Of a stretch of 64,000 bases of DNA, positions 50,203 through 64,000 are shown one piece after another. Numbering within the stretch: the stretch's first letter is position 1; the number at the start of each line of letters is the position of its first letter. This stretch comes from Clostridia bacterium (lineage in GTDB: Bacteria; Bacillota; Clostridia; Acetivibrionales; JBAZRJ01). The stretch lies in the NCBI GenBank assembly GCA_041662985.1, contig JBAZRJ010000003.1:3793-67792 (forward strand), read 5' to 3'. The position numbers and the translations under genes were made by a program. The notes beneath the pieces were generated by a model. That model saw nothing but the letters and a program-made list of their open reading frames with translations, did not search any database and had not been told where the DNA came from.

Positions 50203-53200
50203 TTAATTTACCGTTACCTTGCATTTATCGGTTTTCTTTCCATCAACTGTGTAAACATATATATATGTCGTGCCTTTTTTAATTCCTTTAACAACGCCCG
50301 TTGAGCTTACAGTCGCAAATGCTTTATTCCCTGATTTCCAGGTAACTTTCTTGTTACTTGCGTTTGTTGGGTTCACAGTCGCGCTCAACTTCATGGTTTT
50401 TCCTTTTTTTAGAGATGCCGATATTTTGCTCAATTTTACTCTTGTTACAGGTTGGGTAACCGTTACAGCACATGTCGCAACTCTTCCTCCGCTAACGGAT
50501 GAAGCTATAATCAAAGTTGTTCCTCTTGTCTTTGCGGTTACTTTTCCCGTAGACGTAACAGAAGCAATTTTAGAGTTGGCCGATGTCCACATAACAGCTT
50601 TATTGGAAGCATTGGTCGGATAGACAGTCGCAGTCAGTTTTACCGTCTGGCTCACTTTCAAAAAACTGCTTGCCTTATTGATAGTAATTTTAGAAACACT
50701 AATCGGTGTTGGCTTAGGAGTTGGTATTACAGTTGGCGTAGCCGTTGGTGTTGCTGTCGGCGTTGCTGTTGGTGTTGCTGTCGGCGTAGACGTTGGAGTT
50801 GCCGTCGGCGAAGCCGTTGGCGTAACTGTCGGTGTAGTTGTCGGCGTAGCCGTTGGAGTTGCCGTCGGCGTTGCTGTTGGTGTTGCTGTCGGCGTAGACG
50901 TTGGAGTTGCCGTCGGCGAAGCCGTTGGCGTAACTGTCGGTGTAGTTGTCGGCGTAGCCGTTGGAGTTGCCGTCGGTGTAGCCGTCGGCGTAGCCGTTGG
51001 AGTTGCCGTCGGCGTAGCCGTTGGCGTAACAGTCGGAGTTGCCGTTGGAGTTGCTGTCGGCGTAACTGTCGGCGTAGCCGTTGGTATTGCCGTCGGCGTA
51101 ACCGTTGGTGTTTGATAACCCTCAGGGAAAATTGTGTGATTCTCAATTTTAAATAAGTTATTGGCAGTATCGGATATAAAGAACACTTTCCCGACATCGT
51201 CGGTATAAGGTGCCTCCGCTCTGAAAAGATAATTACTCGCTATTTGCGTCCTCATGCCTCCCTGCGGCGTAACCCAGACACTAAATGTTTTGGAAATCAT
51301 ATTAGCCTGTATTTCAATATGATATTTTGTATTTGCAGAATATGTCACCTTGTTATCATATTCACATAACCAACCGCTTCTGGCGTCAAATATGCCTGCA
51401 TCATTCAATCTGACCTGGATTGCAAGGTCGTCAAAACCGGTTATCAAAGTGGAAGAATCAATATATGCTATTTGAGCATCAATATTATCCGCCAATGGAG
51501 TAACATCAAAACTCATTACCTGATTTCCGGTATTTGAACTTCCCAAGTCATACCCGTTATTTTGCCAATCAGGATTCTTAAAAGAATATGCCGTCTCAAT
51601 AAACGCACCGCCGGGAGTTGCTGTTGGAATTGGTGTCTCAGTCGGTACCGGCGTTGCCGTAGGTGTCGGTTCAAGAGTCGGTGTTGCAGTAGGAAGGTTC
51701 TGGCTGCTGCTTCCGTCCATTTTGATGAAATCATCAGGATTTACAGATACACCTGACCTAATCAATCCGGATGCTGCGGCAATCGGATCTTGAGAACTGT
51801 TCCACTTATTGCCTAATGCTGTATGAATGTAAACCATATCTCCTGTCGGGTAATTATAGATAGTTCCTGTTAAAACTCCGGGATCAATATTAATCGGAGG
51901 GTCGAACATATCATATCTGCCGCCGGGTTTTACTGCTTCCGCATGTTCCGGACTCTCGATAAATTGCATACGTTCCATCTTGCATACCGCAATAGGAGGA
52001 TTTGTGTTTGAACCGGCAATTATAACGCTGTTTGTAAAATTAATGTTTGAAGGTCTTATCGCGGGATCGATCTGGTTATCCAGTTCCCCATGATTATCTC
52101 CGAATATTTCAAATGCGTATTTTGTCGGTAATACTGAATAAAAACTATCGACATACTGGTCATGGTTGAGCCTCATTTCACTTGCGATTGATACAGGCGA
52201 ACCCCTGTCTCCGCAGCGGACCATCTCACAGATACCTCGACCGGGATTAACCTCTTCTCCTCTTTCATTGCCAAAAAGCCAACCCGCTTTTTCTCCGTTA
52301 ATTGAAACACATTCTTCGAAATAACCGCCCTGGAAAAAGAAATTTGACCCTTCGGTTTCAGCAGGGATAGTATGTCTCGGTATGACAGGGTTGCCAAATT
52401 CGTCTCTGTAAAGAGCTCTCTGTCCTGCATCAATTGAAACGCAACGATATAATGAAAGGTTTTTAATATTCCCTCCGGATGCTTCCGGCTCGGTATAAAA
52501 ACCTGCTTTCCAGCAATCTATGGCGTAGCAGTCTCTTGCCACCACATCTTCAATATTCTGATTTTCGCAGAAATCAAAACCTACCGACCAGTCTGCGCTT
52601 CCGCCCTCAATTTTTCCCGATCCTCCGTGCAATGCACGGCAATTTTTAAAATAAATATTTTTTGATGTGCCCGGATTTTGTCCGGTTTGTATTGCAAAAC
52701 TATGGTGGGATGAACATTGCACATTAATGTTTTCAAGTGTGACGGTATTGCAGCTTCCGTATACCCACAGGGTTCCGGTTGCGCCGGCGTTGCCCATGAA
52801 GCACCAAGTTCCGTTTGGGTATGTTCCGTGATAATTATGTATAAGCACATTTTTTACTATAGAATTGGTAATATTGTCTAAAGTCATAACAACATATCCG
52901 CTGAATTCAACATCTTGAATTCTAATATTTGTTGCGCCGCTGACTGTATCGACATATCCTATATTTCCTGACGGTGCCTGTACTGAAGAATCAAGAAATG
53001 TCCTTGTCGCAAAAACAGCTTGTGTCGAGGAGTTGGGATAGAGCATCTGAGACTTGTCCTCAGGAAGAGCAACATGTGTTTCACCGAGAATGCTTGTATT
53101 GCTTCCAATTATAAATTGTCTTGTAGGGCCTTCGATCCAGTATTCTCCCGGTGCAAAATAGCAGGTAACATTGCCCCGAACCAACAAATTTTTTAATGAG

Positions 53201-53457
53201 GTCGGCAGGACTCCATTTGTGCAGATAATTGTTCCGGATGCATTTTTATATAAAGCCGGACTTGTATCAGTGGCAACATGTATCACACTTGCGGCTGATA
53301 CCTTTTCTCCGGTATCAATAATAAACGACATTGTGGAAATCATTGCAACTGTCAAAATTATTGAAAGAAATCTTTTTGCATTAATTATGTTTCTCAAATT
53401 TTTCCCCCTGAATTGGTTATTTATTTTAGAAAATATATCCTTATAGAATTCTACCAT
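50203..53457 (-). CDS. Secreted multidomain protein
   Basis: Domain order: signal peptide, right-handed parallel beta-helix, P/T linker, ~150-aa unassigned module, long P/T linker, two Big_2 Ig-like domains. Signal peptide [21 protein letters not shown]. PbH1-like repeats ([36 protein letters not shown]). The module is at 51133-51591, and the (TPTATP)n linker follows. The two C-terminal Big_2-like repeats are [29 protein letters not shown] and [29 protein letters not shown]. Confidence 0.85.
50757..50976 (-). repeat. Perfect 108-bp in-frame tandem duplication inside the P/T linker
   Basis: 50757-50868 is identical to 50865-50976 (period 108 nt = 36 codons, [36 protein letters not shown]). 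It is embedded in a ~410-nt ACN-CCN repeat tract (50700-51110). Confidence 0.9.
51133..51591 (-). other. Unassigned ~150-aa module, copy 3 (in the beta-helix protein)
   Basis: [33 protein letters not shown]...[26 protein letters not shown]...FKIENHTI aligns along its length with the two copies in the Rhs protein. Confidence 0.8.
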
Positions 53458-53579: not shown

Positions 53580-54788
53580 ATGAATAGAATCCAAAGAAAA
53601 GAATATCTTGATTTTTTAATAAGAGGCAGGGACAAACAAATAGTTAAAATTGTGTCTGGCGTTCGCAGATGCGGTAAATCAACCTTATTCGAGATATATC
53701 GCGACTACTTGAAAGAGAACGGTGTAAATGAAAATCAATTCATATCAATAAACTTCGAGGATATTGATTTTGAATATCTGAATACATATCGCAAGCTTTA
53801 TGATTATATAAAACCTCTTTTGACTGAAAATAAAATGAATTACATTTTCCTTGATGAAATTCAACATGTAGAAAATTTCGAAAAAGCAGTTGACAGCCTG
53901 TTTATCAAAAAAAACTGTGACGTATATGTAACAGGCTCAAATGCATTTTTCATGTCCGGCGAATTTGCAACCTTGCTTTCAGGGCGTTATACAGAATTGA
54001 AGATGCTCCCTTTATCATTCAAGGAATTTTGCTCGGAATATAAAAAGGGCAAAAGTCATTTGCCAAATATACAAAAGTATACGGCTTATCTTGAAAACAG
54101 TTCTTTCCCCTATACCATGCAATTAACGGAAAAAAAAGATGTAAAGCAGTATCTGCAAAGTATATATGATTCAGTGCTGCTGAAAGATATTGTTGCAAGA
54201 CTTAATATATCCGATGTTCTAATGCTTGAAAGCATCGTTAAGTTTGTCTTCGATAATATTGGTAACCTTCTGTCAACGACAAGTATTGCTAAAACAATGA
54301 CTTCAAAAGGACGGAAGATTGACCAAAAAACAGTTGAAAAATATATTAAGGGCTTGATGAACAGTCTTATCGTCTATCAGGCAAAGAGGTACAATATAAA
54401 GGGTAAGCAATACCTTGCTACTCTTGAAAAATACTATGTTGTCGATATAGGTCTCAGATACATGCTTCTGGGGGACAAAGGAATCGATGTAGGGCATATT
54501 CTTGAAAATGTTATTTACTTAGAACTGCTGCGCAGAGGTTTTGATGTTAGTGTAGGCAAAGTCGAAGATTTTGAGGTCGATTTTGTTGCGTCTGACGAAA
54601 ACGGGCTGAAATACTTCCAAGTCGCCGCATCAACAAGAGACAACTCAACCCTTGAGAGAGAATTAAAATCTCTTCAAAAAATATCCGATCATTACCCAAA
54701 ATACATCTTGACTCTTGATGAAGACCCTGAAGCTGACTATGAAGGAATCAAGAGAATAAATGCTCTTGAATGGCTGCTTTCAGAATAA
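53580..54788 (+). CDS. AAA-family ATPase with C-terminal DUF4143-type domain
   Basis: Walker A GVRRCGKST and Walker B IFLDEIQ. The C-terminal third (FEVDFVA....YFQV) matches the ATPase+DUF4143 architecture as I remember it. Confidence 0.8.
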   Translation: MNRIQRKEYLDFLIRGRDKQIVKIVSGVRRCGKSTLFEIYRDYLKENGVNENQFISINFEDIDFEYLNTYRKLYDYIKPLLTENKMNYIFLDEIQHVENFEKAVDSLFIKKNCDVYVTGSNAFFMSGEFATLLSGRYTELKMLPLSFKEFCSEYKKGKSHLPNIQKYTAYLENSSFPYTMQLTEKKDVKQYLQSIYDSVLLKDIVARLNISDVLMLESIVKFVFDNIGNLLSTTSIAKTMTSKGRKIDQKTVEKYIKGLMNSLIVYQAKRYNIKGKQYLATLEKYYVVDIGLRYMLLGDKGIDVGHILENVIYLELLRRGFDVSVGKVEDFEVDFVASDENGLKYFQVAASTRDNSTLERELKSLQKISDHYPKYILTLDEDPEADYEGIKRINALEWLLSE

Positions 54789-55077: not shown

Positions 55078-56673
55078 CTATTTGGCACCTTTCTTAGAAA
55101 GATATTCCGCTATGTGTTTACTTCCTCTTTGAATGGCAAAAGTCCTTATTGACTTGATGCTATCATCCGAATCAATATACTCCAAATCCGCACCATTTTC
55201 AACAAGTAACTTAACAATATCAAATGCTCCGCTTTGTATTGCTTCAACTAATGCAGAATTGGTTTTAGAGCCATCATCCCATACTCCTATTGCATTAACA
55301 TCAACTCCTTTTTTTATCAAATACTCTGCAATATTTGTTCTGCAAAATTGAGATGCTAAATTAAGTGGCAACCCCTTCAGGCCACTACCATCAACATTAG
55401 CACCACTTTCAACCAATAATTTTACAAAATTCATTTTCCCTAATGTACAAGCCTCTCCTAATAATGTAGTTCCATTTTGATCTTCAATGTCTAAATCTAT
55501 CCCTAAATCTAAAAAATATTTTAAGGAATTTAATTGATCCCATTTTATAGCTTCAATCATAGCCGGTATTATGTTCTTGGCATTACGCGGATATCCATTT
55601 TCAATTAATAATTTTATTATTCTTACATCCCCATTTGCAGATGCAAAATTCATAGCGCTCACCTGGTAACCATTATGTTCATAATATGTTCGAGCACCTT
55701 TCTTCAACAAATACTTTGCAGTTTCATATTGATTATTCCGAACGGACAATATTAATGCAGTTTCATTATCATTGTTTTCATTTTCTGTACCTTTAAATTT
55801 TGCGAGTAAGTATTTTAAAGTTTCTAACTGTCCATATTTTGCCGCAATCGCTAAAGTCGAGTTTTTATTATCATCAAATAATCTGATTTCAAGCCCTCTG
55901 TTTTCAAGCAGTTTAACTGTCTTTAAGTTGCAGAATGCAGTAGAATAAAGCACAATCTTCTTTTCGTAATCTTTTTTTACTTTACCCTTTAATACATACT
56001 CTGCTACTTTTGAAGACTCACCTAATATCGCAGCTTCAAAAACCGGATCTAAATTTGACTTAAACCCGGCATTTATCAACCCCTGTAGAATTTGCTTAAT
56101 CATGCCGTATTTGCAGTAACCAATACTATTTCTCAAAATCGACTCTAATGTTTTTGGGGTAATCTTCGCACCGTTTTTAATAAGCATATTAAATGTCAAA
56201 TTTGAATACTGTTCAAGTGGACCCCATTGTAACATAAAATCCAAAGCCGTATATCCATCCTTACCGGTTTGATTGATTTTTGCCCCATGTTTAAGGAGAA
56301 GCTCACATAATTCATTATTCCCCATACCCGCTGCATACATCAATTGTGAAACACCTGCACTATCAGTGTAATTGGGATCAGCACCTTTTTCTATAAGATA
56401 TCGGGCTATGGAATCCCTTCCATCCTCGCATGCTATCCTAAAAGGGTTTTTTTGTCTCACACCAAATTGTGTGATTTTTGTTAACAAAAATCCACTTAAC
56501 TCGTTTAGATTTGCACCATCATCAATTGCTTCCTTTGCACCTTCTAAACTTCCATTCTCTATACTGGTAAATAATTTCATATCATTTCCTTTCCCTGTTA
56601 TTATTGAGCATGAAGATAAAAACAATCCTACTAAAATTATCATGCCCAATATTTGAATTGGCTTAATTTTCAT
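55078..56673 (-). CDS. Ankyrin-repeat lipoprotein (about 12-14 ANK repeats); candidate immunity protein
   Basis: Signal peptide with lipobox LSSC (MKIKPIQILGMIILVGLFLSSCS). It has many ANK repeats (e.g. GADPNYTDSAGVSQLMYAAGMGNNELCELLLKHGAKIN). A GGAGGG SD is present, and the gap after the Rhs stop is only 43 nt. Confidence 0.85.
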   Translation of the reverse strand: MKIKPIQILGMIILVGLFLSSCSIITGKGNDMKLFTSIENGSLEGAKEAIDDGANLNELSGFLLTKITQFGVRQKNPFRIACEDGRDSIARYLIEKGADPNYTDSAGVSQLMYAAGMGNNELCELLLKHGAKINQTGKDGYTALDFMLQWGPLEQYSNLTFNMLIKNGAKITPKTLESILRNSIGYCKYGMIKQILQGLINAGFKSNLDPVFEAAILGESSKVAEYVLKGKVKKDYEKKIVLYSTAFCNLKTVKLLENRGLEIRLFDDNKNSTLAIAAKYGQLETLKYLLAKFKGTENENNDNETALILSVRNNQYETAKYLLKKGARTYYEHNGYQVSAMNFASANGDVRIIKLLIENGYPRNAKNIIPAMIEAIKWDQLNSLKYFLDLGIDLDIEDQNGTTLLGEACTLGKMNFVKLLVESGANVDGSGLKGLPLNLASQFCRTNIAEYLIKKGVDVNAIGVWDDGSKTNSALVEAIQSGAFDIVKLLVENGADLEYIDSDDSIKSIRTFAIQRGSKHIAEYLSKKGAK

Positions 56674-56716
56674 TTGTTAGCCCTCCATACTGAAGTAAGC
56701 ATCTTATATTTCATTC

Positions 56717-59700
56717 TTATCCCCACCACTCAATAATTAATTCCTTTTTATCATTTGATGCTATATATATTCTCGCCTTGGAATAACAACTCTTAAATCC
56801 TCTATAACACGCAGAACACATTCCTTCATTTGGGAATATAATTTTTGCAATCATATATAAATTTTTTGCAGAGTAAACTCTACCCGGTGTGAAACCAGTC
56901 AACCACCAATGATACTGAAATACCCTATGAACAAGTTTTTTATCATTTAATGTTCTAAGATAGATTGCCATTTTTAACATATCACTATTTTTTACACTTG
57001 CATACCATCCTGGTACATAGAACCATTCCCTATAATAAACTCCTATTTCACAGCCGGATGCAACTAAATACTGACCCTTCCAAAGTTGGACTCTCCAATC
57101 CATTTTTGTACCATCTTTTCTTTTATAAGTAAAATAGCTTTTTAAACTGTCTATATGAAATCCGAGAGCAGGTGCAGCCCAATCAAAAGCATCACAATAT
57201 CCAAAACCCCTTTGCCACGCATTCAATGATGTATAATAAAAATCATAAGTGCGGTCTTTGTAATGATTTAGTCCTGTATAAATTTTAGTAACCCCATTGG
57301 TAAAAAGTGAAAGATCGTATAAAGTCCCGCTTGGGTCAGAATAAATAATCGGATTATTCCCACAATACGCAAATATATTCGCTCCAAGTACTTCACCCTG
57401 TGTATCCTGCAAAATACCTATTTCATCCGCATTAATAAACCTTCCGGTATTTGAATCATAATATCTGCTCTGCAGATAATAAAGCCCGGTTTCGGTATCA
57501 AAGTAGTAACTTCTATAGCGGAATGGATTTATTACCCCTAATGTGCTCGCCGCGCTTCCTGTAGTTGATAGCAATTTGCCCCATGCATCATATGTATAGT
57601 CTACCACATCGTTGCCGTTGCTATCAAGAATACTCAATATATCTCCCTGAATATTTTTAACATAGTAATAATCTGTGGTTGTACTGCCGGTCGTTTTCTC
57701 AAACCCGATTAAGTTATCATTTCCATCGTATCTAAAATACAGCTTATTTGTTCCGTCATCCTGATAAGTTATTTTATTTCCAACCAATGTATATTTTGTA
57801 GTTGTACCGTTTACGGTTTTGCTTTGACGGATACCGTCCTGGTTGTATTTATAAGCTATCGTTTTACTGTTACCCGTTACTCCTGCAAGTTCTCTTCCCA
57901 TTTCCCATGTGAAGTTATACCCATTGTAATAGCTTAGCGGATTACCCACATCGTCATATGTAATGCTGTTTCCATCGTAACTTGTTAATTTATCCTTCCA
58001 TGTGTTGTCGTATCCATAGTTTTTCGTTGTGAGAACTGAACCAAGAGTTCCTGTGGTATAAGCATATGTTTTTTTGCTCGATATGTTTCCGCCTACATCA
58101 TAAGCATAAACAGTTGTTCCATTATTAGGGTCATTTACCCTTGTAAGCTCCCCGGCATCATTGTAAACATATGTTTTGCCGCTGTCATTTACAATATTTC
58201 CAACTTTGTCATATTGATATGAAAATATTTTGCTGTATCCGTTATTGCCAAACATGCTGACTGCGCATGGCAAGGTTCCGGTCTTATATTGTGAGAAATT
58301 CGGATAACTATAGGTAGTGTTTAAAAGATTGGCAGTAATTTCACCGGACGAGTTCTTTTTGTACAAACTTCCCCCTGTAATCCTGCCTAAACCGTCATAA
58401 GCAGCCTCGCTGTTTACGACAGAGCCATTGGATAGACTAAAGTATGCTTTGCTTGCAAGACCATCCGAATCAGTAAGAAAATTTGTTGTGTATGTGATGC
58501 TTCCTATCGATTCACTGAAAGTATTCGCATCATTCTCCCCGGCACTGTTCCAAAAACTATGAGTGTACGGGCTTGCTCCGATTGTGTTTTTTTGGTTTGT
58601 TATACTGTTGCCATCACTGTCAGAGCTATAGCTTGTCTGAATATTATTCACATGGTCTATTATTGTATTGATATTTCCCGCATTTCCATATGAGAACTTA
58701 TATCTCAATAAATCATTATATGAGACACTGCTTGGATTGAAATTCGTGTCGTAATCGAAGCTGACAGTCCCGCAGCTGCTATTTACTCCGTAATCAATTT
58801 CGTTTAAGCTATATCCGTTTGCGGCATTATTGTATGTAAAATTCATCAGCGAATTTGATTCAACACTAACCGATGAAATCGCACCTTTTGTATTATATGT
58901 AAAGTCATAAGTAAAGTCATTATGGGTTACACTTGCAAGCGCATCGTTTTTGTAATATTCATAACCGGTCAGAAGACTATTGGTTCCGTCTGATTTTGAA
59001 ACAGAGGATAAGTTTCCAAACGCATTATAGTTGTAACCTGTTGTTACGTTATTTGCATCGGTTTCTGAATCCAGCAAACCAAGGTTTGTATCGTAGCTGT
59101 ATGTCGTCACATTACCGACATCGTCTGTCAAATCGGCAAGATAATTTCCGTCGGCGGTATATGTATTGTCGGTTTCAATCATTTGTCTGCCGTTTGTGGT
59201 AACCGAACGCAAAGGATTGTTATTTAAATCAAATGTACACAAGCTTTCAACACCTTCACTGCTCACTGAATCTGTTGTATTGCCAAAAGTATCTGTTACA
59301 GTCTTTGATTTATCCTCCACACTATCCATAATGCTGTCATCATTTATACCCGGTGCAGCTGTTGGAGTAGCCGAAGGTGATGAAGTCGGTTCCGGTGTTG
59401 GTTCAGGTATATCCTGAGAATCAATTAATATCCCATCTTCGTCATAATTATAGTTTGTTCCAAACGGTTCTTTATATAACTGAATAGCGTCAAAGAAAGA
59501 AACATTTGACTGCTTGGCATAATCGACAGTAATCTTAATACTGTCATAATCACCTTCGGCGGTAAAACCTGACATCGAATACTGCCAGTCTGTGACCGAA
59601 GGGTTAAATACAGCATGATAAGTTTCAGTTACACTTGAGTTTTTAATCAAATCTGCGCGTATCTCAAATGTCCTGTCTCCGGATAGCGGTACTGCCTTGC

Positions 59701-62700
59701 TTTTTGCCCAACCCCCGAAAGAATATTGATCGCCCTTTTTGCCGCCTACTGCAATATTCTGATATATTGCCGCATTTTTTAACGGATTGCCTTGAATTTG
59801 CATGTAGTTTTTCCCAACAGGACTCAAAGGCGCAGTATTTAAGACATTTGATGTTGAAGACTCGGTATCGTTATTGTTATTAAAACTGTAATAAGACCAT
59901 GAAGCAGGGGTGGCCGGAGTACCTGTTGTCTTTTCAAACCCGCTGTTTTCAACAAAGTTGAAACTACCGGGTTCAGTATTTGAAGATGTTTGGGCATATT
60001 CAAGCTGTACTCCGTCGAACCAGGCAGAACCAATAGAATCATATGCAAGTTCAGTCCAAGATTTAACTGTTGTTGCATTGTTTATATGGAAAGACATATA
60101 AATACGTTTCCAGTCACTTTGACCATCAATAATTTCGCTGTCATGTGTAATAGTAATATCTCCGGATGCAGTTGCTGTAACATTAAGCCTTGCACCGTCA
60201 ATTCCCGAGCTCCTCTTTACATAAGCCGAGAGGACATAATCTCCTCCTGCTTCCAAATCAATACTTTGATAATATGATGATTTGGCAGCATAGCCTGAAT
60301 AATGTATAAATTTGAAAGAATTGCTTCCAAAGTATTTATAATCTGTAGCAATTGAATTATTGCCGCCTGAACTCGTCCAACCTGTTGCTCCGTTTTCCGC
60401 AGAACCGTTTGTCAATAAATTCACCGAGGTCTTTTTTAAATCTGAAATACATACAATTCTGTCGGGGTTTTTTGAGCTTCCTGCATTCGGAGCATATGAG
60501 CCAAACACAGCGTTTCCCAAATGATCCTGAACTGATATAACATTACCCGAATTGTCAAACTGCAAAGTAACTGACTTATTTGTATCGATGTCTGTATATT
60601 TTGTTGAGTTTTGAGTATATGTAACGTTCACCTGCTGCATTTTATGTTCACTCAAATTACCCGAATTATATGCGCCTATATCATACTGGGTTATACTCGA
60701 AATTTTTGCACCGGTTGTATAACCCAAATCCAATTGACATCCATCCACATTTACAATCCTGGAAATCGTCTTGTCAGAATTCCACTCGTAAATCACATTT
60801 CTGTCATCGTCACCTGAAACAGTAGGATAACTCACGTCCGCAGGGTAAACAACACCCGTTAAATTATTGCTTGAGTCATATGAATAGCAAACAGTTTTGA
60901 GTACTGTGGTTCCTTTACCAATGTAATCAATACGTGTCAGCCTATGTGTGGTTGCATTATATGTAAACTGATACTTTCTGCCAACACCGTCAGTTATATG
61001 GTCTATCGCGCATGATGCTGCTTCCGATGTATCATATACGATATCTATGGATTTTTGAGTAATATTACTGCTATTTAAAGTTGCTATCCTGCCCGCACCG
61101 TTAAAAGTGATAATCTCATTTGTATCTGTTTTTGTCACCGTCATCTTGCTTAAATCATTCGGATAGTTTGAGTCAACTGTCAGGGAATAGGTATCGTCTG
61201 TGTCTGTAAATGTTATGTTTGATTCTTCAGTACCCGTGGATGTAGGCGTAGGTGTTGCAGCAACTCCTGCAATAACTCTATGGTTTTCTACTTTAAAATC
61301 ATTTACCGTATTTGAAACACAAAATAGCTTTCCGGCATCATCTGTAGCCGCACAGCCTGTTCTAAAAGCATAATTGGCGGCTATCTGTGTTTTTGTGCCT
61401 CCTGTTGGGGTAACCCAAACACTGTAAGTATTCGCGCTCATGTCTGCAGCAATTTCTACATGATATTTAGTATACGCGGAATAACTTACTGCATTTGTAT
61501 GTGTGCATGATGAACCGTTCCGTACATCAAAAACACCTGTATCACTTAAGGCTATTTGCATCGCCAGTTTGTCAAATCCCGTCACATCGGCAGAAGAATC
61601 TGCATAAGATATCTGTGCATCCAAATCATTTTCTAACGGCGTTACATCAAAACTTATATCTTGATTTCCGGTATTGCCGTCGCCAAGTGAGTATCCGTTG
61701 CTTAACCAGTTACCCGAAGAGGAGTATATCCGAGCCGGTATACTGGCAGGAGTATATGTAGGTGCAGCAATCACTCCTTCTTCTATTGTTTGATTTTCAA
61801 CTTTAAAAGCATTGCTGTAGGCTTCGGAAATAAAATATGCTTTTCCGACATCATTTGTTAAAGGCGCACTCGACCTGAATTCATAGTTGCTTGCTATTTG
61901 GGTTCTTGCCCCTCCGTCAGGAGTAATCCATACGCTGTACGTATGAGCGCTCATATTTGCTTCAATTTCAACATGGTACTGAGTATACGCCGCATAATTT
62001 ACAGTACCTGAATGCGTACATCCCGCACCTTTCCTTACTTCAAAAATACCGCTTGGATTAAGCCAGATTTGCATTGCAAGCTGATTAAAGTTCGTAACCG
62101 TAGTTGCATATCCGGCATATGCCACCTGACCATCAATATTATTTCTTAGCGGTGTAATATCAAAATTAATTACCTGATTTCCCGTATTGCCGCTTCCTAA
62201 ATCGTACGGACTGTTTACCCAAAACCCGTCACGTTGCGAATAAATCTCATCTGTTTGTTTTGGCTCTGTGGTTTCATCCGATACAGTTTCGGTTCCGGTT
62301 TCGTCAAAAGCAGTTTTTGTTCCGTCTGCTGCCGTAAACTGATAATAGTCTTCTCCGTCTTTTGGTGTAATACGTCTTATACTCTGCATATTGTTTGATA
62401 TTTTAACAAGCCTTCCGATGCTGCCGTTTGAAGGATTATCAAATGAAAGAATTTGATTGTCCGGAGTATATACCGAAACTTTTGTGTAGTCATCAAGGTC
62501 GCTTGGGTACACAGTCAATATGTAGCCGCTTCCGCTATTATCAATATATGATTCCGTCGGGTCCGCAACTTTTGAATTGTTTTCAAAATATATTATATGT
62601 CCGTCCTCTGCCGTGTATGCATAATATGGTATTAAGTTTGTTAAACTGGCAGGATAGAATTTTATTGTCTGGCTGTAATTGGTTCTCCAGCCGTTTCCAT

Positions 62701-64000
62701 ACCTTGCAACATTCCCCGAGGAGTTTGTAATGTATTTGTCTTTGTCGGATGTGTTATATATCATTGAGATATCTACAGGTAAAATATTTCCGCCGACCCC
62801 TATATCTTCTCTGCTTACGCTTAGTTTTCCGGTATAATCATTAAGATAAACCGTTCCGGCTTTTCCCACGCCTATGCTGCGCTGACTTGTTATACTCTTA
62901 TTTCCAATATCATTTTTATAGGTTATTTGAACATACGGATACCAATTCTCATTTGTATAACCATTAAAAAAGTAATCCGATGAATAGAAATAACCGCAGT
63001 TTCCTGCAGTCGGCACAGGGCTGTCACTTTTCAACATTACTCCGTAGTTCGTTGCTGTTCCGCTATACCAGTCTTTTACTAGTCCTGTTATATCAAAGTG
63101 AACATTTTTAATAAAATCCTCATTAGTCTGCGTTGCCCAATCAAGAATTTTCGGGTCATTCGAAGGTGCTTCGGTTGAGTTTACATATCTTTCATCCCAA
63201 TCGCTTATAACCTTGTATAAACTTGTGGTCCATGTAGCTCCATTGCTGTTTGGGGCTTGTGTTAAATTCAATTGTGCATCAGTTATTATACTTCCATTAT
63301 CGAGTACCGGAAGAGTGTTTACCTTTAAATATGTTCTATAAACCTGATTGGAAGAACCTTTACCTGTATACAGGTAAATTGGATTTTGATTGGTTGCACC
63401 ATAGCATGTGTTGTCACCTTCAATGACATAAGCATCACTGTATGTTGTATTGCCTCCGTTTGTATTTACATGTCCGTTTACTGCAGTTATTGTAGGGTCA
63501 ATCGTAACAGGATATGCGCGATCGGTTGCGTTTAACCAAACATCTGATGGTGTATATGTCAGTTTATACCCATTGCCGACACTTTTAATTATTGCGGTTA
63601 TATCGCTTGAATTAACATTTTTGCTGTCAAACATAAAAGGTGCAGGCATAACAAAAACAGGCGTTTTGGATTTATCGGAAGAGGAATAGAAATTAACCGA
63701 ATTGTCTTTTTGTAGTTCTGCTGTTAACCCAGTTGTCTTTATATCATAAACATAATCTACTGCCTTGCTCGGTATTTTATTTAAAGTAATTGTTTCTTTT
63801 AATGAATTTGATTGCAGACTGTAATTTACATTTGTGTCTTGTTCAACTGCATTGTACTTAGCTGTGTCGGATTTGTCACTCATGTTGGTCATTTCGATTG
63901 CTGACTTTTTGTCTGAATCGGAAACCTTTTGTACAACAATTTCATCCTTGACTGTTCCCGCTTTTTCTGCCGCTGAGATTTTATCAACCTTATTTATCTT
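56717..64000 (-). CDS. Giant Rhs/YD-repeat polymorphic toxin, 5' end beyond the window
   Basis: The reading frame stays open for 36 codons upstream of the ATG at 63892, to base 64000. YD repeats run throughout 57.3-61.2 kb (e.g. YSYDSSNNLTGVVY, YAYDVGGNISSK, YTYDAWGKL). The canonical Rhs C-terminal boundary is YYLQSRYYDSNTGRFINADEIG...NNPIIYSDPSGT, followed by a 201-aa tail. Confidence 0.9.
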   Translation of the reverse strand, partial: KINKVDKISAAEKAGTVKDEIVVQKVSDSDKKSAIEMTNMSDKSDTAKYNAVEQDTNVNYSLQSNSLKETITLNKIPSKAVDYVYDIKTTGLTAELQKDNSVNFYSSSDKSKTPVFVMPAPFMFDSKNVNSSDITAIIKSVGNGYKLTYTPSDVWLNATDRAYPVTIDPTITAVNGHVNTNGGNTTYSDAYVIEGDNTCYGATNQNPIYLYTGKGSSNQVYRTYLKVNTLPVLDNGSIITDAQLNLTQAPNSNGATWTTSLYKVISDWDERYVNSTEAPSNDPKILDWATQTNEDFIKNVHFDITGLVKDWYSGTATNYGVMLKSDSPVPTAGNCGYFYSSDYFFNGYTNENWYPYVQITYKNDIGNKSITSQRSIGVGKAGTVYLNDYTGKLSVSREDIGVGGNILPVDISMIYNTSDKDKYITNSSGNVARYGNGWRTNYSQTIKFYPASLTNLIPYYAYTAEDGHIIYFENNSKVADPTESYIDNSGSGYILTVYPSDLDDYTKVSVYTPDNQILSFDNPSNGSIGRLVKISNNMQSIRRITPKDGEDYYQFTAADGTKTAFDETGTETVSDETTEPKQTDEIYSQRDGFWVNSPYDLGSGNTGNQVINFDITPLRNNIDGQVAYAGYATTVTNFNQLAMQIWLNPSGIFEVRKGAGCTHSGTVNYAAYTQYHVEIEANMSAHTYSVWITPDGGARTQIASNYEFRSSAPLTNDVGKAYFISEAYSNAFKVENQTIEEGVIAAPTYTPASIPARIYSSSGNWLSNGYSLGDGNTGNQDISFDVTPLENDLDAQISYADSSADVTGFDKLAMQIALSDTGVFDVRNGSSCTHTNAVSYSAYTKYHVEIAADMSANTYSVWVTPTGGTKTQIAANYAFRTGCAATDDAGKLFCVSNTVNDFKVENHRVIAGVAATPTPTSTGTEESNITFTDTDDTYSLTVDSNYPNDLSKMTVTKTDTNEIITFNGAGRIATLNSSNITQKSIDIVYDTSEAASCAIDHITDGVGRKYQFTYNATTHRLTRIDYIGKGTTVLKTVCYSYDSSNNLTGVVYPADVSYPTVSGDDDRNVIYEWNSDKTISRIVNVDGCQLDLGYTTGAKISSITQYDIGAYNSGNLSEHKMQQVNVTYTQNSTKYTDIDTNKSVTLQFDNSGNVISVQDHLGNAVFGSYAPNAGSSKNPDRIVCISDLKKTSVNLLTNGSAENGATGWTSSGGNNSIATDYKYFGSNSFKFIHYSGYAAKSSYYQSIDLEAGGDYVLSAYVKRSSGIDGARLNVTATASGDITITHDSEIIDGQSDWKRIYMSFHINNATTVKSWTELAYDSIGSAWFDGVQLEYAQTSSNTEPGSFNFVENSGFEKTTGTPATPASWSYYSFNNNNDTESSTSNVLNTAPLSPVGKNYMQIQGNPLKNAAIYQNIAVGGKKGDQYSFGGWAKSKAVPLSGDRTFEIRADLIKNSSVTETYHAVFNPSVTDWQYSMSGFTAEGDYDSIKITVDYAKQSNVSFFDAIQLYKEPFGTNYNYDEDGILIDSQDIPEPTPEPTSSPSATPTAAPGINDDSIMDSVEDKSKTVTDTFGNTTDSVSSEGVESLCTFDLNNNPLRSVTTNGRQMIETDNTYTADGNYLADLTDDVGNVTTYSYDTNLGLLDSETDANNVTTGYNYNAFGNLSSVSKSDGTNSLLTGYEYYKNDALASVTHNDFTYDFTYNTKGAISSVSVESNSLMNFTYNNAANGYSLNEIDYGVNSSCGTVSFDYDTNFNPSSVSYNDLLRYKFSYGNAGNINTIIDHVNNIQTSYSSDSDGNSITNQKNTIGASPYTHSFWNSAGENDANTFSESIGSITYTTNFLTDSDGLASKAYFSLSNGSVVNSEAAYDGLGRITGGSLYKKNSSGEITANLLNTTYSYPNFSQYKTGTLPCAVSMFGNNGYSKIFSYQYDKVGNIVNDSGKTYVYNDAGELTRVNDPNNGTTVYAYDVGGNISSKKTYAYTTGTLGSVLTTKNYGYDNTWKDKLTSYDGNSITYDDVGNPLSYYNGYNFTWEMGRELAGVTGNSKTIAYKYNQDGIRQSKTVNGTTTKYTLVGNKITYQDDGTNKLYFRYDGNDNLIGFEKTTGSTTTDYYYVKNIQGDILSILDSNGNDVVDYTYDAWGKLLSTTGSAASTLGVINPFRYRSYYFDTETGLYYLQSRYYDSNTGRFINADEIGILQDTQGEVLGANIFAYCGNNPIIYSDPSGTLYDLSLFTNGVTKIYTGLNHYKDRTYDFYYTSLNAWQRGFGYCDAFDWAAPALGFHIDSLKSYFTYKRKDGTKMDWRVQLWKGQYLVASGCEIGVYYREWFYVPGWYASVKNSDMLKMAIYLRTLNDKKLVHRVFQYHWWLTGFTPGRVYSAKNLYMIAKIIFPNEGMCSACYRGFKSCYSKARIYIASNDKKELIIEWWG
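56720..57322 (-). other. Rhs C-terminal payload, DUF4474-like, activity unknown
   Basis: The tail after DPSGT contains AWQRGFGYCDAFD, DWRVQLWKGQY, GCEIGVYY and HWWLTGF. I associate these with Pfam DUF4474 (memory only, no search run). Confidence 0.6.
59465..60421 (-). other. Two tandem CBM4/9-like (galactose-binding-like) modules within the Rhs protein
   Basis: The first is NLLTNGSAENGATGWTSSGG...WFDGVQLEYA (59992-60421). The second is NFVENSGFEKTTG...FFDAIQLYKEP (59465-59962). The N[GS]xFE...W start and F[FD]D..QL end are typical of this CBM fold. Confidence 0.55.
61277..62239 (-). other. Unassigned ~150-aa module, copies 1 and 2 (tandem, in the Rhs protein)
   Basis: Copy 1 is at 61784-62239 and copy 2 at 61277-61726. 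By eye about half of the aligned positions are identical (Y.LG.GNTGNQ..F D.TPL, LAMQI, CTH, YHVEI, YSVW.TP.GG..TQIA.NY.FR, FKVEN). Confidence 0.8.

Follow-up and report, generated by a model that had tools for sequence, protein, structure and literature searches.

The window considered here is a 64,000-nucleotide stretch of contig JBAZRJ010000003.1 (positions 3,793 to 67,792 of the forward strand) in the Clostridia bacterium assembly GCA_041662985.1. Toward one end it carries, on the minus strand, a gene of the Rhs/YD-repeat polymorphic toxin type and, starting 43 bp past the stop codon of that gene, a gene for an ankyrin-repeat lipoprotein that is its predicted immunity gene. The last 201 amino acids (aa) of the Rhs protein are a truncated core of DUF4474 (PF14751), a family of which there is no mention, under either name, in the literature searched. 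The Rhs gene is at 56717-64000 and its first ATG is at 63892; translation from there (ORF 56717-63892) gives 2391 aa, which is a minimum length because the frame is open, with no stop across 63893-64000, up to the window edge. RHS/YD repeats are recognized in the product by Pfam RHS_repeat (E 5e-8) and by TIGR01643 (E 1e-5), the NCBIfam models Rhs_assc_core and YD_repeat_2x also match, and a DNRLRE domain is at residues 161-307 (Pfam/NCBIfam scans). In the N-terminal region of the Rhs protein there are two tandem modules of about 164 aa (residues ~549-712 and ~721-882; window 61247-62248, minus strand) that are 54% identical to each other. They have a weak Pfam match to Sialidase-like CBM and are probably a carbohydrate- or surface-binding repeat.

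The shell ends in an Rhs-associated core domain (residues 2101-2189; 57326-57592, minus strand; TIGR03696 in NCBIfam, E 6.3e-20), the end of which reads ...SRYYDSNTGRFINADEIG...NNPIIYSDPSGT. The core region of Rhs proteins is a plug with an autoproteolysis motif, and PxxxxDPxGL is the motif that separates shell from toxin (PMC8636562). The corresponding PxxxxDPxG boundary between shell and payload, as read from the sequence, is PIIYSDPSGT at residues 2181-2190 (57323-57352, minus strand), with T as the final motif residue versus L in PxxxxDPxGL. An initial annotation of the window, made by a model from the letters and open reading frames, had described a canonical Rhs core ending with a DPxG boundary, and that is what is present. 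By analogy with the rest of the Rhs family, and going by the motif, the tail would be released by autoproteolysis at this point.

The payload proper is at 56720-57322 (minus strand). It contains AWQRGFGYCDAFD, DWRVQLWKGQY, GCEIGVYY and HWWLTGF, all as listed in the initial annotation, which had associated them with DUF4474 and had proposed a comparison with the PF14751 profile. The comparison confirms the resemblance decisively (E 2.9e-37, 128.8 bits with a cutoff of 23, Pfam), residues 2212-2379 being the stretch that matches (56756-57259, minus strand; Pfam and alignment). The match spans profile positions 11-179 of 240, and the C-terminal helical region of a full-length DUF4474 is absent. 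Apart from DUF4474, the tail has no match in Pfam or NCBIfam to a nuclease, deaminase, ADP-ribosyltransferase, peptidase, lipase or other family, just as had been supposed, and there is no PHROG match. It is basic (pI 9.3), 21% of its residues are aromatic, and long hydrophobic segments are lacking. There are five Cys, three of them near the end at tail positions 169, 172 and 179, where four had been counted before, and none of the five is conserved in relatives.

An alignment of 142 DUF4474 sequences shows which residues are conserved. In tail numbering Q37, W81, K82, G83, Y85, G90, E92, G94, Y96, W139, W140 and F144 are invariant in all 142, while Y42, D47 and T142 do not vary within the Rhs tails and reach a conservation of at least 90% over the whole alignment. 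Conserved Cys residues were considered as catalytic or metal ligands and rejected, as the C-terminal Cys and C43 vary among relatives; a conserved His was rejected in the same role, H138 being replaced in a second subtype of tail. In the AlphaFold2 model of the tail (pLDDT 90, pTM 0.85) the DUF4474 core opens with a short helical part; the rest is a large antiparallel sheet, with some ten strands, and a single long helix.

Base composition changes at the payload. The GC fraction of the tail is 0.33 versus 0.38 for the whole Rhs gene, and the tail and ankyrin gene together form a low-GC block (55100-57300) at ~0.31-0.35 in 600-base windows versus ~0.38-0.42 in the Rhs body. A difference in GC between tails and shells of Rhs proteins is known (PMC8636562), and the drop over both genes fits a swapped toxin/immunity cassette. 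The second gene of this block, the exported ankyrin lipoprotein that the initial annotation had seen next door, is at 55078-56673 (minus strand) and encodes 531 aa with Ank_2 repeats (E 1.4e-57). Its lipoprotein signal, MKIKPIQILGMIILVGLFLSSC, encoded at 56608-56673 (minus strand), comprises a signal peptide and an LSSC lipobox (sequence read and lipobox scan).

Occurrence of DUF4474 behind an Rhs shell is not peculiar to the window. A tail-only single-sequence search gave 7 matches, all of them stand-alone proteins of ~300 aa, and it took a query reaching across the core/tail junction to bring out Rhs fusions. Besides the window protein, such a query yielded at least 26 clusters of proteins in which the end of a YD shell (PF25023, with or without PF05593) is joined to PF14751. 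The fused tails are 190-225 aa long, with no gap between them and the end of the Rhs core, and all lack the extension that stand-alone proteins have at the C-terminus. One subtype, to which the window tail is similar, has WQRxFGYCD, WKGQY and HWWLTGF; the other has CWQQYFGYN, WKGDYINLGAGAE and WWITGFNP. Metagenome contigs confirm that there are full-length Rhs proteins with such tails (1047, 1169, >1174 and >1883 aa), and in the last of these (L164 3-5654, also L165) the core end is followed by a payload made up of an SH3_3 domain and then DUF4474.

Two further settings are informative. Locus L010 has an array of orphan Rhs-tail cassettes, with a small gene after each tail; one of the tails is DUF4474, and another, beside it, is the known toxin domain Ntox37. 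At L106 (1143-7400) there is no Rhs scaffold; genes for a DUF4280 (PAAR-like) protein and for two VgrG-like proteins are followed by one for a 391-aa DUF4474 effector, which has an N-terminal repeat region and no Rhs repeats, and then by one for an ankyrin lipoprotein of 584 aa (41% identity to its counterpart in the window). An Imm11-family gene is upstream in this cluster. The presence of one domain on different delivery scaffolds is a hallmark of polymorphic toxin domains (PMC3482391), and DUF4474, being both Rhs- and VgrG-linked, therefore displays it.

The pairing of tail and ankyrin gene is not confined to the window. P0271, the closest Rhs-DUF4474 relative, is followed by a gene for a 509-aa ankyrin lipoprotein that is collinear with the window one over its full length (27% identity, E 3e-52). 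Pairing of a DUF4474 tail with an ankyrin lipoprotein occurs in five diverged lineages (the window; L012; L094/L095/L114/L115; L096/L110; and the VgrG-linked L106), between which the tails are 31-43% and the ankyrin proteins 22-41% identical. Tails and ankyrin proteins have thus diverged to a similar degree, as expected of co-evolving partners. Ankyrin and leucine-rich-repeat (LRR) proteins are recognized immunity classes (PMC3482391), and the window pair has the marks of Imm-ank: ankyrin repeats, a directly downstream position and a pairing that is kept elsewhere. From its position and conservation the window ankyrin lipoprotein is predicted to be the immunity protein.

In other lineages unrelated proteins occupy the same position. 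Including the five with ankyrin lipoproteins, the directly downstream proteins belong to at least four unrelated families, the others being DUF5104 lipoproteins (three lineages: L007, L009, L010), for which PDB sequence searches were empty, BspA-type LRR proteins (two lineages: L111, L133) and small lipoproteins or membrane proteins (five lineages: L011, L013, L113, L119, L164). At L164 the gene for the partner, a 243-aa lipoprotein, overlaps the Rhs stop codon. What these proteins do have in common is export: the directly downstream protein is exported in 15 of 15 partner lineages, in 13 with a lipobox and in two with a signal peptide or membrane segment, and it is cytosolic in none. The initial annotation had proposed that tail and ankyrin protein form a toxin-immunity pair acting on the envelope, and the comparison lends support to this, both through the pairing in five lineages and through the exported partners of the other subtypes. 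As a separate observation, four of the small partner proteins (L011 6760-7197, L113 1180-1650, L119 4757-5146 and L164 5645-6376) have in common a loose KYGEDY ... GG ... W-K/H-V pattern. Three of the four have a lipobox and the one at L119 has only a membrane segment; a Pfam match is absent in the three that were scanned, and the group may be an undescribed immunity family.

The facts on placement and partners also bear on whether the tail is a toxin at all. It could be a non-toxic module that serves for binding or as a structural part, a plug or an adhesin for example, with the ankyrin gene as an unrelated neighbour, and in favour of this DUF4474 cores are also present on surface proteins (with dockerin, or with Big_2 and Flg_new-type repeats) and on tethered lipoproteins with no immunity-like neighbour. 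In many Rhs proteins, however, the tail is what comes after the PxxxxDPxG boundary, and it shares an orphan cassette array with a known toxin domain; its downstream partner co-diverges with it in five lineages, including one at a non-Rhs, VgrG-linked locus, and the GC shift extends across tail and partner as one cassette. A non-toxic role is accordingly very hard to credit. That the payload is a toxin delivered by the Rhs protein, that it acts outside the cytoplasmic membrane and that the ankyrin lipoprotein confers immunity to it is, in our judgement and going by comparative sequence evidence, highly probable.

Most members of the DUF4474 family are of a quite different kind. A profile search yielded 1,889 clusters at 50% identity; the profile used to find representatives included the C-terminal extension, and the best 150 of the 1,889 are almost all stand-alone. 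Most DUF4474 proteins are stand-alone and 280-370 aa long, and have either a hydrophobic helix at the N-terminus with a basic stretch after it or a tail anchor at the C-terminus, so that by the positive-inside rule the domain probably faces the cytoplasm. They share with the Rhs tail the core fold and the invariant WQ, GY..YD, WKGxY, GxExGxY and WWxTGF. Unlike it they have a membrane anchor and an extra C-terminal ~80-100 aa, modelled as four helices in the stand-alone protein P0005 (AlphaFold2, pLDDT 93.5, pTM 0.91), and they share an operon with a metallophosphoesterase gene, while both a lipoprotein partner and a delivery module are lacking. At the three stand-alone loci with called genes that were inspected, the lipoprotein partner was indeed absent.

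The metallophosphoesterase association is extensive. Of 75 such loci, taken from different genomes, 58 have a gene for a calcineurin-like metallophosphoesterase of ~300 aa, with no signal peptide, immediately downstream on the same strand, and it often overlaps the DUF4474 stop codon (L014-L093; e.g. L014 5818-6795 and 6782-7687). DUF4474-Metallophos fusions exist as well (P0151, P0254). NCBIfam does not name the subfamily of the metallophosphoesterase, giving only weak YfcE- and LpxH-like matches, and searches of PDB sequences with it were empty. In a subgroup from human gut (L116-L173; e.g. L120 4632-5594 and 5647-6228) the downstream gene instead encodes a YfbR-like HD 5′-deoxynucleotidase (Pfam E 1.5e-72). 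Another architecture is that of a Treponema protein in which DUF6765 is fused to a full-length DUF4474 (L024 1656-3803). The operon of DUF4474 and metallophosphoesterase indicates a membrane-associated pathway that is yet to be described, and the Rhs toxins appear to have a truncated core that was taken from a housekeeping protein working with a phosphoester hydrolase. As the same invariant residues are present in toxin tails and in housekeeping members, one chemistry probably underlies both. The initial annotation had argued from the Rhs payload slot to a toxic activity for DUF4474 in general. For the tail that argument is strengthened by the Rhs fusions, the array with Ntox37 and the VgrG locus; extended to the family it was over-generalised.

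Since the partners are uniformly exported and membrane-tethered, and immunity sits where a toxin acts, the site of action of the DUF4474 tail is most likely outside the cytoplasmic membrane. Bacterial SH3 domains typically direct cell-wall enzymes to peptidoglycan, and the payload composed of SH3_3 and DUF4474 therefore agrees with action outside, as do DUF4474 cores that are naturally exported. The latter are found as lipoproteins (L060, L063, L091), following a signal anchor and a Thr/Pro-rich linker (L029, L042, L058, L081), or with a signal peptide and a dockerin-like calcium-binding repeat that was recognized by motif, not by Pfam (L069 3977-5002, L070 5599-6624, L082 5575-6606). In addition there is a 933-aa surface protein (L083 5098-7899) with Ig-like repeats at the N-terminus and further repeats at the C-terminus, on either side of a DUF4474 core. 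That the location of an immunity protein tracks the site at which its toxin acts is seen with Tle-Tli (bioRxiv 10.1101/2023.03.28.534661) and with TelC-TipC (PMC5555719, PMC6193138). Beside the four genes for the linker-bearing forms there is a downstream gene for a conserved secreted protein of 235-310 aa (e.g. L042 851-1879 then 2010-2717), and the two of these that were scanned, from L042 and L081, have no Pfam match.

The housekeeping members invite another view, namely that the tail acts in the cytoplasm of the target, for instance on a nucleotide or other phosphoester, with the surface lipoproteins intercepting it before entry. They apparently face the cytoplasm, to judge by the basic stretch after the helix or the C-terminal anchor, and are in an operon with, or fused to, a cytoplasmic metallophosphoesterase, the alternative neighbour being the YfbR-like 5′-deoxynucleotidase. 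Cytoplasm-acting Rhs toxins are normally paired with cytosolic immunity proteins, however, and none of the 15 partner lineages has one, all partners being exported; the fusion of SH3_3 to the payload and the naturally exported DUF4474 forms likewise point outward. Action in the cytoplasm is on this evidence improbable, and action outside the membrane is the reading followed here.

What the toxin would do there can be sketched. A DUF4474 core of ~200 aa would be carried inside the Rhs shell, freed by autoproteolysis at PIIYSDPSGT, and would then attack a neighbouring Gram-positive cell at the outer face of its membrane or at its wall. The ankyrin lipoprotein, tethered on the outer face of the membrane, would bind the toxin and so shield the producer and its kin. 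The tail is probably an enzyme, which would use the polar set Q37, D47, K82, E92 and T142 within an aromatic cradle. Likely substrates, membrane-proximal and probably phosphate-containing, are phospholipid, teichoic acid, and peptidoglycan or its precursor linked to undecaprenyl pyrophosphate. One kind of substrate would best account at once for the link to phosphoesterases, the membrane anchors of the housekeeping forms, the payload with SH3_3 and the export of the immunity proteins, namely one that is membrane-bound, contains phosphate and is present on both faces of the membrane, for example wall precursors linked to undecaprenyl pyrophosphate. Taken as a whole, with an Rhs payload toxin, an envelope target and ankyrin immunity, this is the best explanation and, as far as sequence comparison can carry it, a probable one. 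That the tail is a hydrolase of cell wall or of a lipid-linked precursor is a conjecture, and we put it forward only tentatively. More doubtful again is the full proposal, in which the core of DUF4474 would be an enzyme fold of a new kind, working on a phosphate-containing, membrane-bound envelope substrate. In most Clostridia it would serve, on the inner face of the membrane and with a metallophosphoesterase dedicated to it, in an as yet unrecognised pathway; the bare core would have been weaponised repeatedly, as Rhs payload and as VgrG-linked effector, with at least four unrelated families of lipoproteins as immunity, and would kill Gram-positive neighbours from outside the membrane.

A toxin acting at the membrane need not be an enzyme. 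The tail might permeabilise the membrane by inserting from outside, with the lipoprotein sequestering it at the membrane surface. That the partners are lipoproteins at this surface would suit such a toxin, as would the beta-rich, basic and very aromatic character of the DUF4474 domain and a hydrophobic AAIGAFFL segment at the N-terminus of the second tail subtype, and pore-forming Rhs toxins are known (PMC10684867). The window tail, on the other hand, is without a long hydrophobic segment, and the conserved Q, K and E (with near-invariant D and T) are common to homologues linked to a phosphoesterase, for which an active site or ligand site is the better fit. The polar nature of the conserved residues, and their presence in cytoplasmic homologues too, make an enzyme likelier than a pore, and we see little prospect that membrane disruption is the answer.

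Several considerations weigh against the explanation preferred here, and it is as well to have them together. The N-terminus of the Rhs protein and its secretion or delivery signal are beyond the window edge, so that the export route is out of view. No catalytic motif was recognized in the tail, profile searches of PDB sequences with it were empty, and a Foldseek search for a catalytic fold of the sort that the initial annotation had suggested gave nothing at E <= 0.001 in PDB or BFVD, either with the tail model or with the full-length stand-alone model. Every profile and fold test for a known toxin catalytic family (Pfam, NCBIfam, PHROG, PDB, Foldseek) failed. Most DUF4474 proteins are not toxins, and with most of them facing the cytoplasm there is room for a cytoplasmic substrate. 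Finally, an obvious immunity gene is absent beside the lipoprotein, dockerin-fused and surface-protein forms of DUF4474, and the domain therefore need not be self-toxic when tethered. On a separate matter, GFP-like barrels, CapZ and CrdA were considered as fold relatives and rejected, their Foldseek matches in PDB being at chance level with TM-scores of about 0.37 or lower; matches in BFVD were of a similar kind, and the best TM-scores overall, on unrelated proteins, are ~0.3-0.4.

In architecture the window pair corresponds to a classical Rhs module of toxin and immunity gene, with its testable defining features in place. As in Rhs1-Tre23 of Photorhabdus (PMC8636562) and the WapA type of toxin in Bacillus and Streptococcus there are YD repeats, a core and a PxxxxDPxG boundary, and as in Rhs toxin systems there is a variable tail of different GC, a gene in the immunity position downstream and relatives in orphan cassette arrays. 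In contrast to Rhs1-Tre23 and the WapA type, the window payload is from a family without a described activity or a detectable structural relative, and the immunity candidate is an exported repeat lipoprotein of 531 aa, not a small cytosolic protein. What is new is a payload outside the known toxin catalytic families; the Rhs module itself is known, and many Rhs tails are uncharacterised.

With respect to the predicted immunity protein the nearest parallel is with Tle-Tli of Enterobacter cloacae, where an ankyrin-repeat lipoprotein is likewise paired with an envelope-acting toxin, as predicted here (bioRxiv 10.1101/2023.03.28.534661). Tli neutralises the envelope-acting lipase only from the periplasm, and the Tle lipase domain is also found on other delivery systems, where too it is linked to ankyrin genes (same source). 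The toxins themselves are related neither in sequence nor in fold: Tle, which reaches its target through a Gram-negative T6SS (type VI secretion), is a lipase of the alpha/beta-hydrolase type, while the DUF4474 tail is beta-rich with no lipase motif and no match to a Pfam lipase. A Gram-positive parallel is TelC-TipC of Streptococcus intermedius, with surface-tethered immunity and action outside the membrane. TelC is a lipid II phosphatase and interbacterial toxin of Gram-positive bacteria, and TipC is its membrane-tethered immunity protein (PMC5555719, PMC6193138). The analogy is functional only; TelC is an LXG/T7SS (type VII secretion) toxin with a different fold and, in sequence and Foldseek comparisons, the tail has no similarity to it, nor was sequence or structural similarity found between the tail and other lipid II-degrading toxins of the colicin M type.

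The remainder of the neighbourhood adds little to the module. Past the ankyrin gene there are no further cassettes of Rhs tail and immunity gene within the window, and the window is also without a DUF5104 gene, a second DUF4474 gene and a metallophosphoesterase gene. The genes past the ankyrin gene include one on the opposite strand for an AAA_14/DUF4143 ATPase (53580-54788, plus strand) and one for a 1084-aa protein ending in Big_2 domains (50203-53457, minus strand).

The finding is of value because the family is broad and has no structural relatives, because its toxins have four predicted families of immunity proteins, and because it is linked to a housekeeping operon that is conserved. DUF4474, with ~1,900 clusters, gains a first testable role. 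To the little-studied field of antagonism among gut and anaerobic Clostridia are added a toxin domain and, as immunity families, ankyrin, DUF5104, BspA-type LRR and small lipoproteins. An envelope toxin without a structural relative could reveal a new way of attacking the Gram-positive cell surface, and knowledge of its chemistry would in turn help to decode the housekeeping pathway in which DUF4474 is partnered by a metallophosphoesterase.

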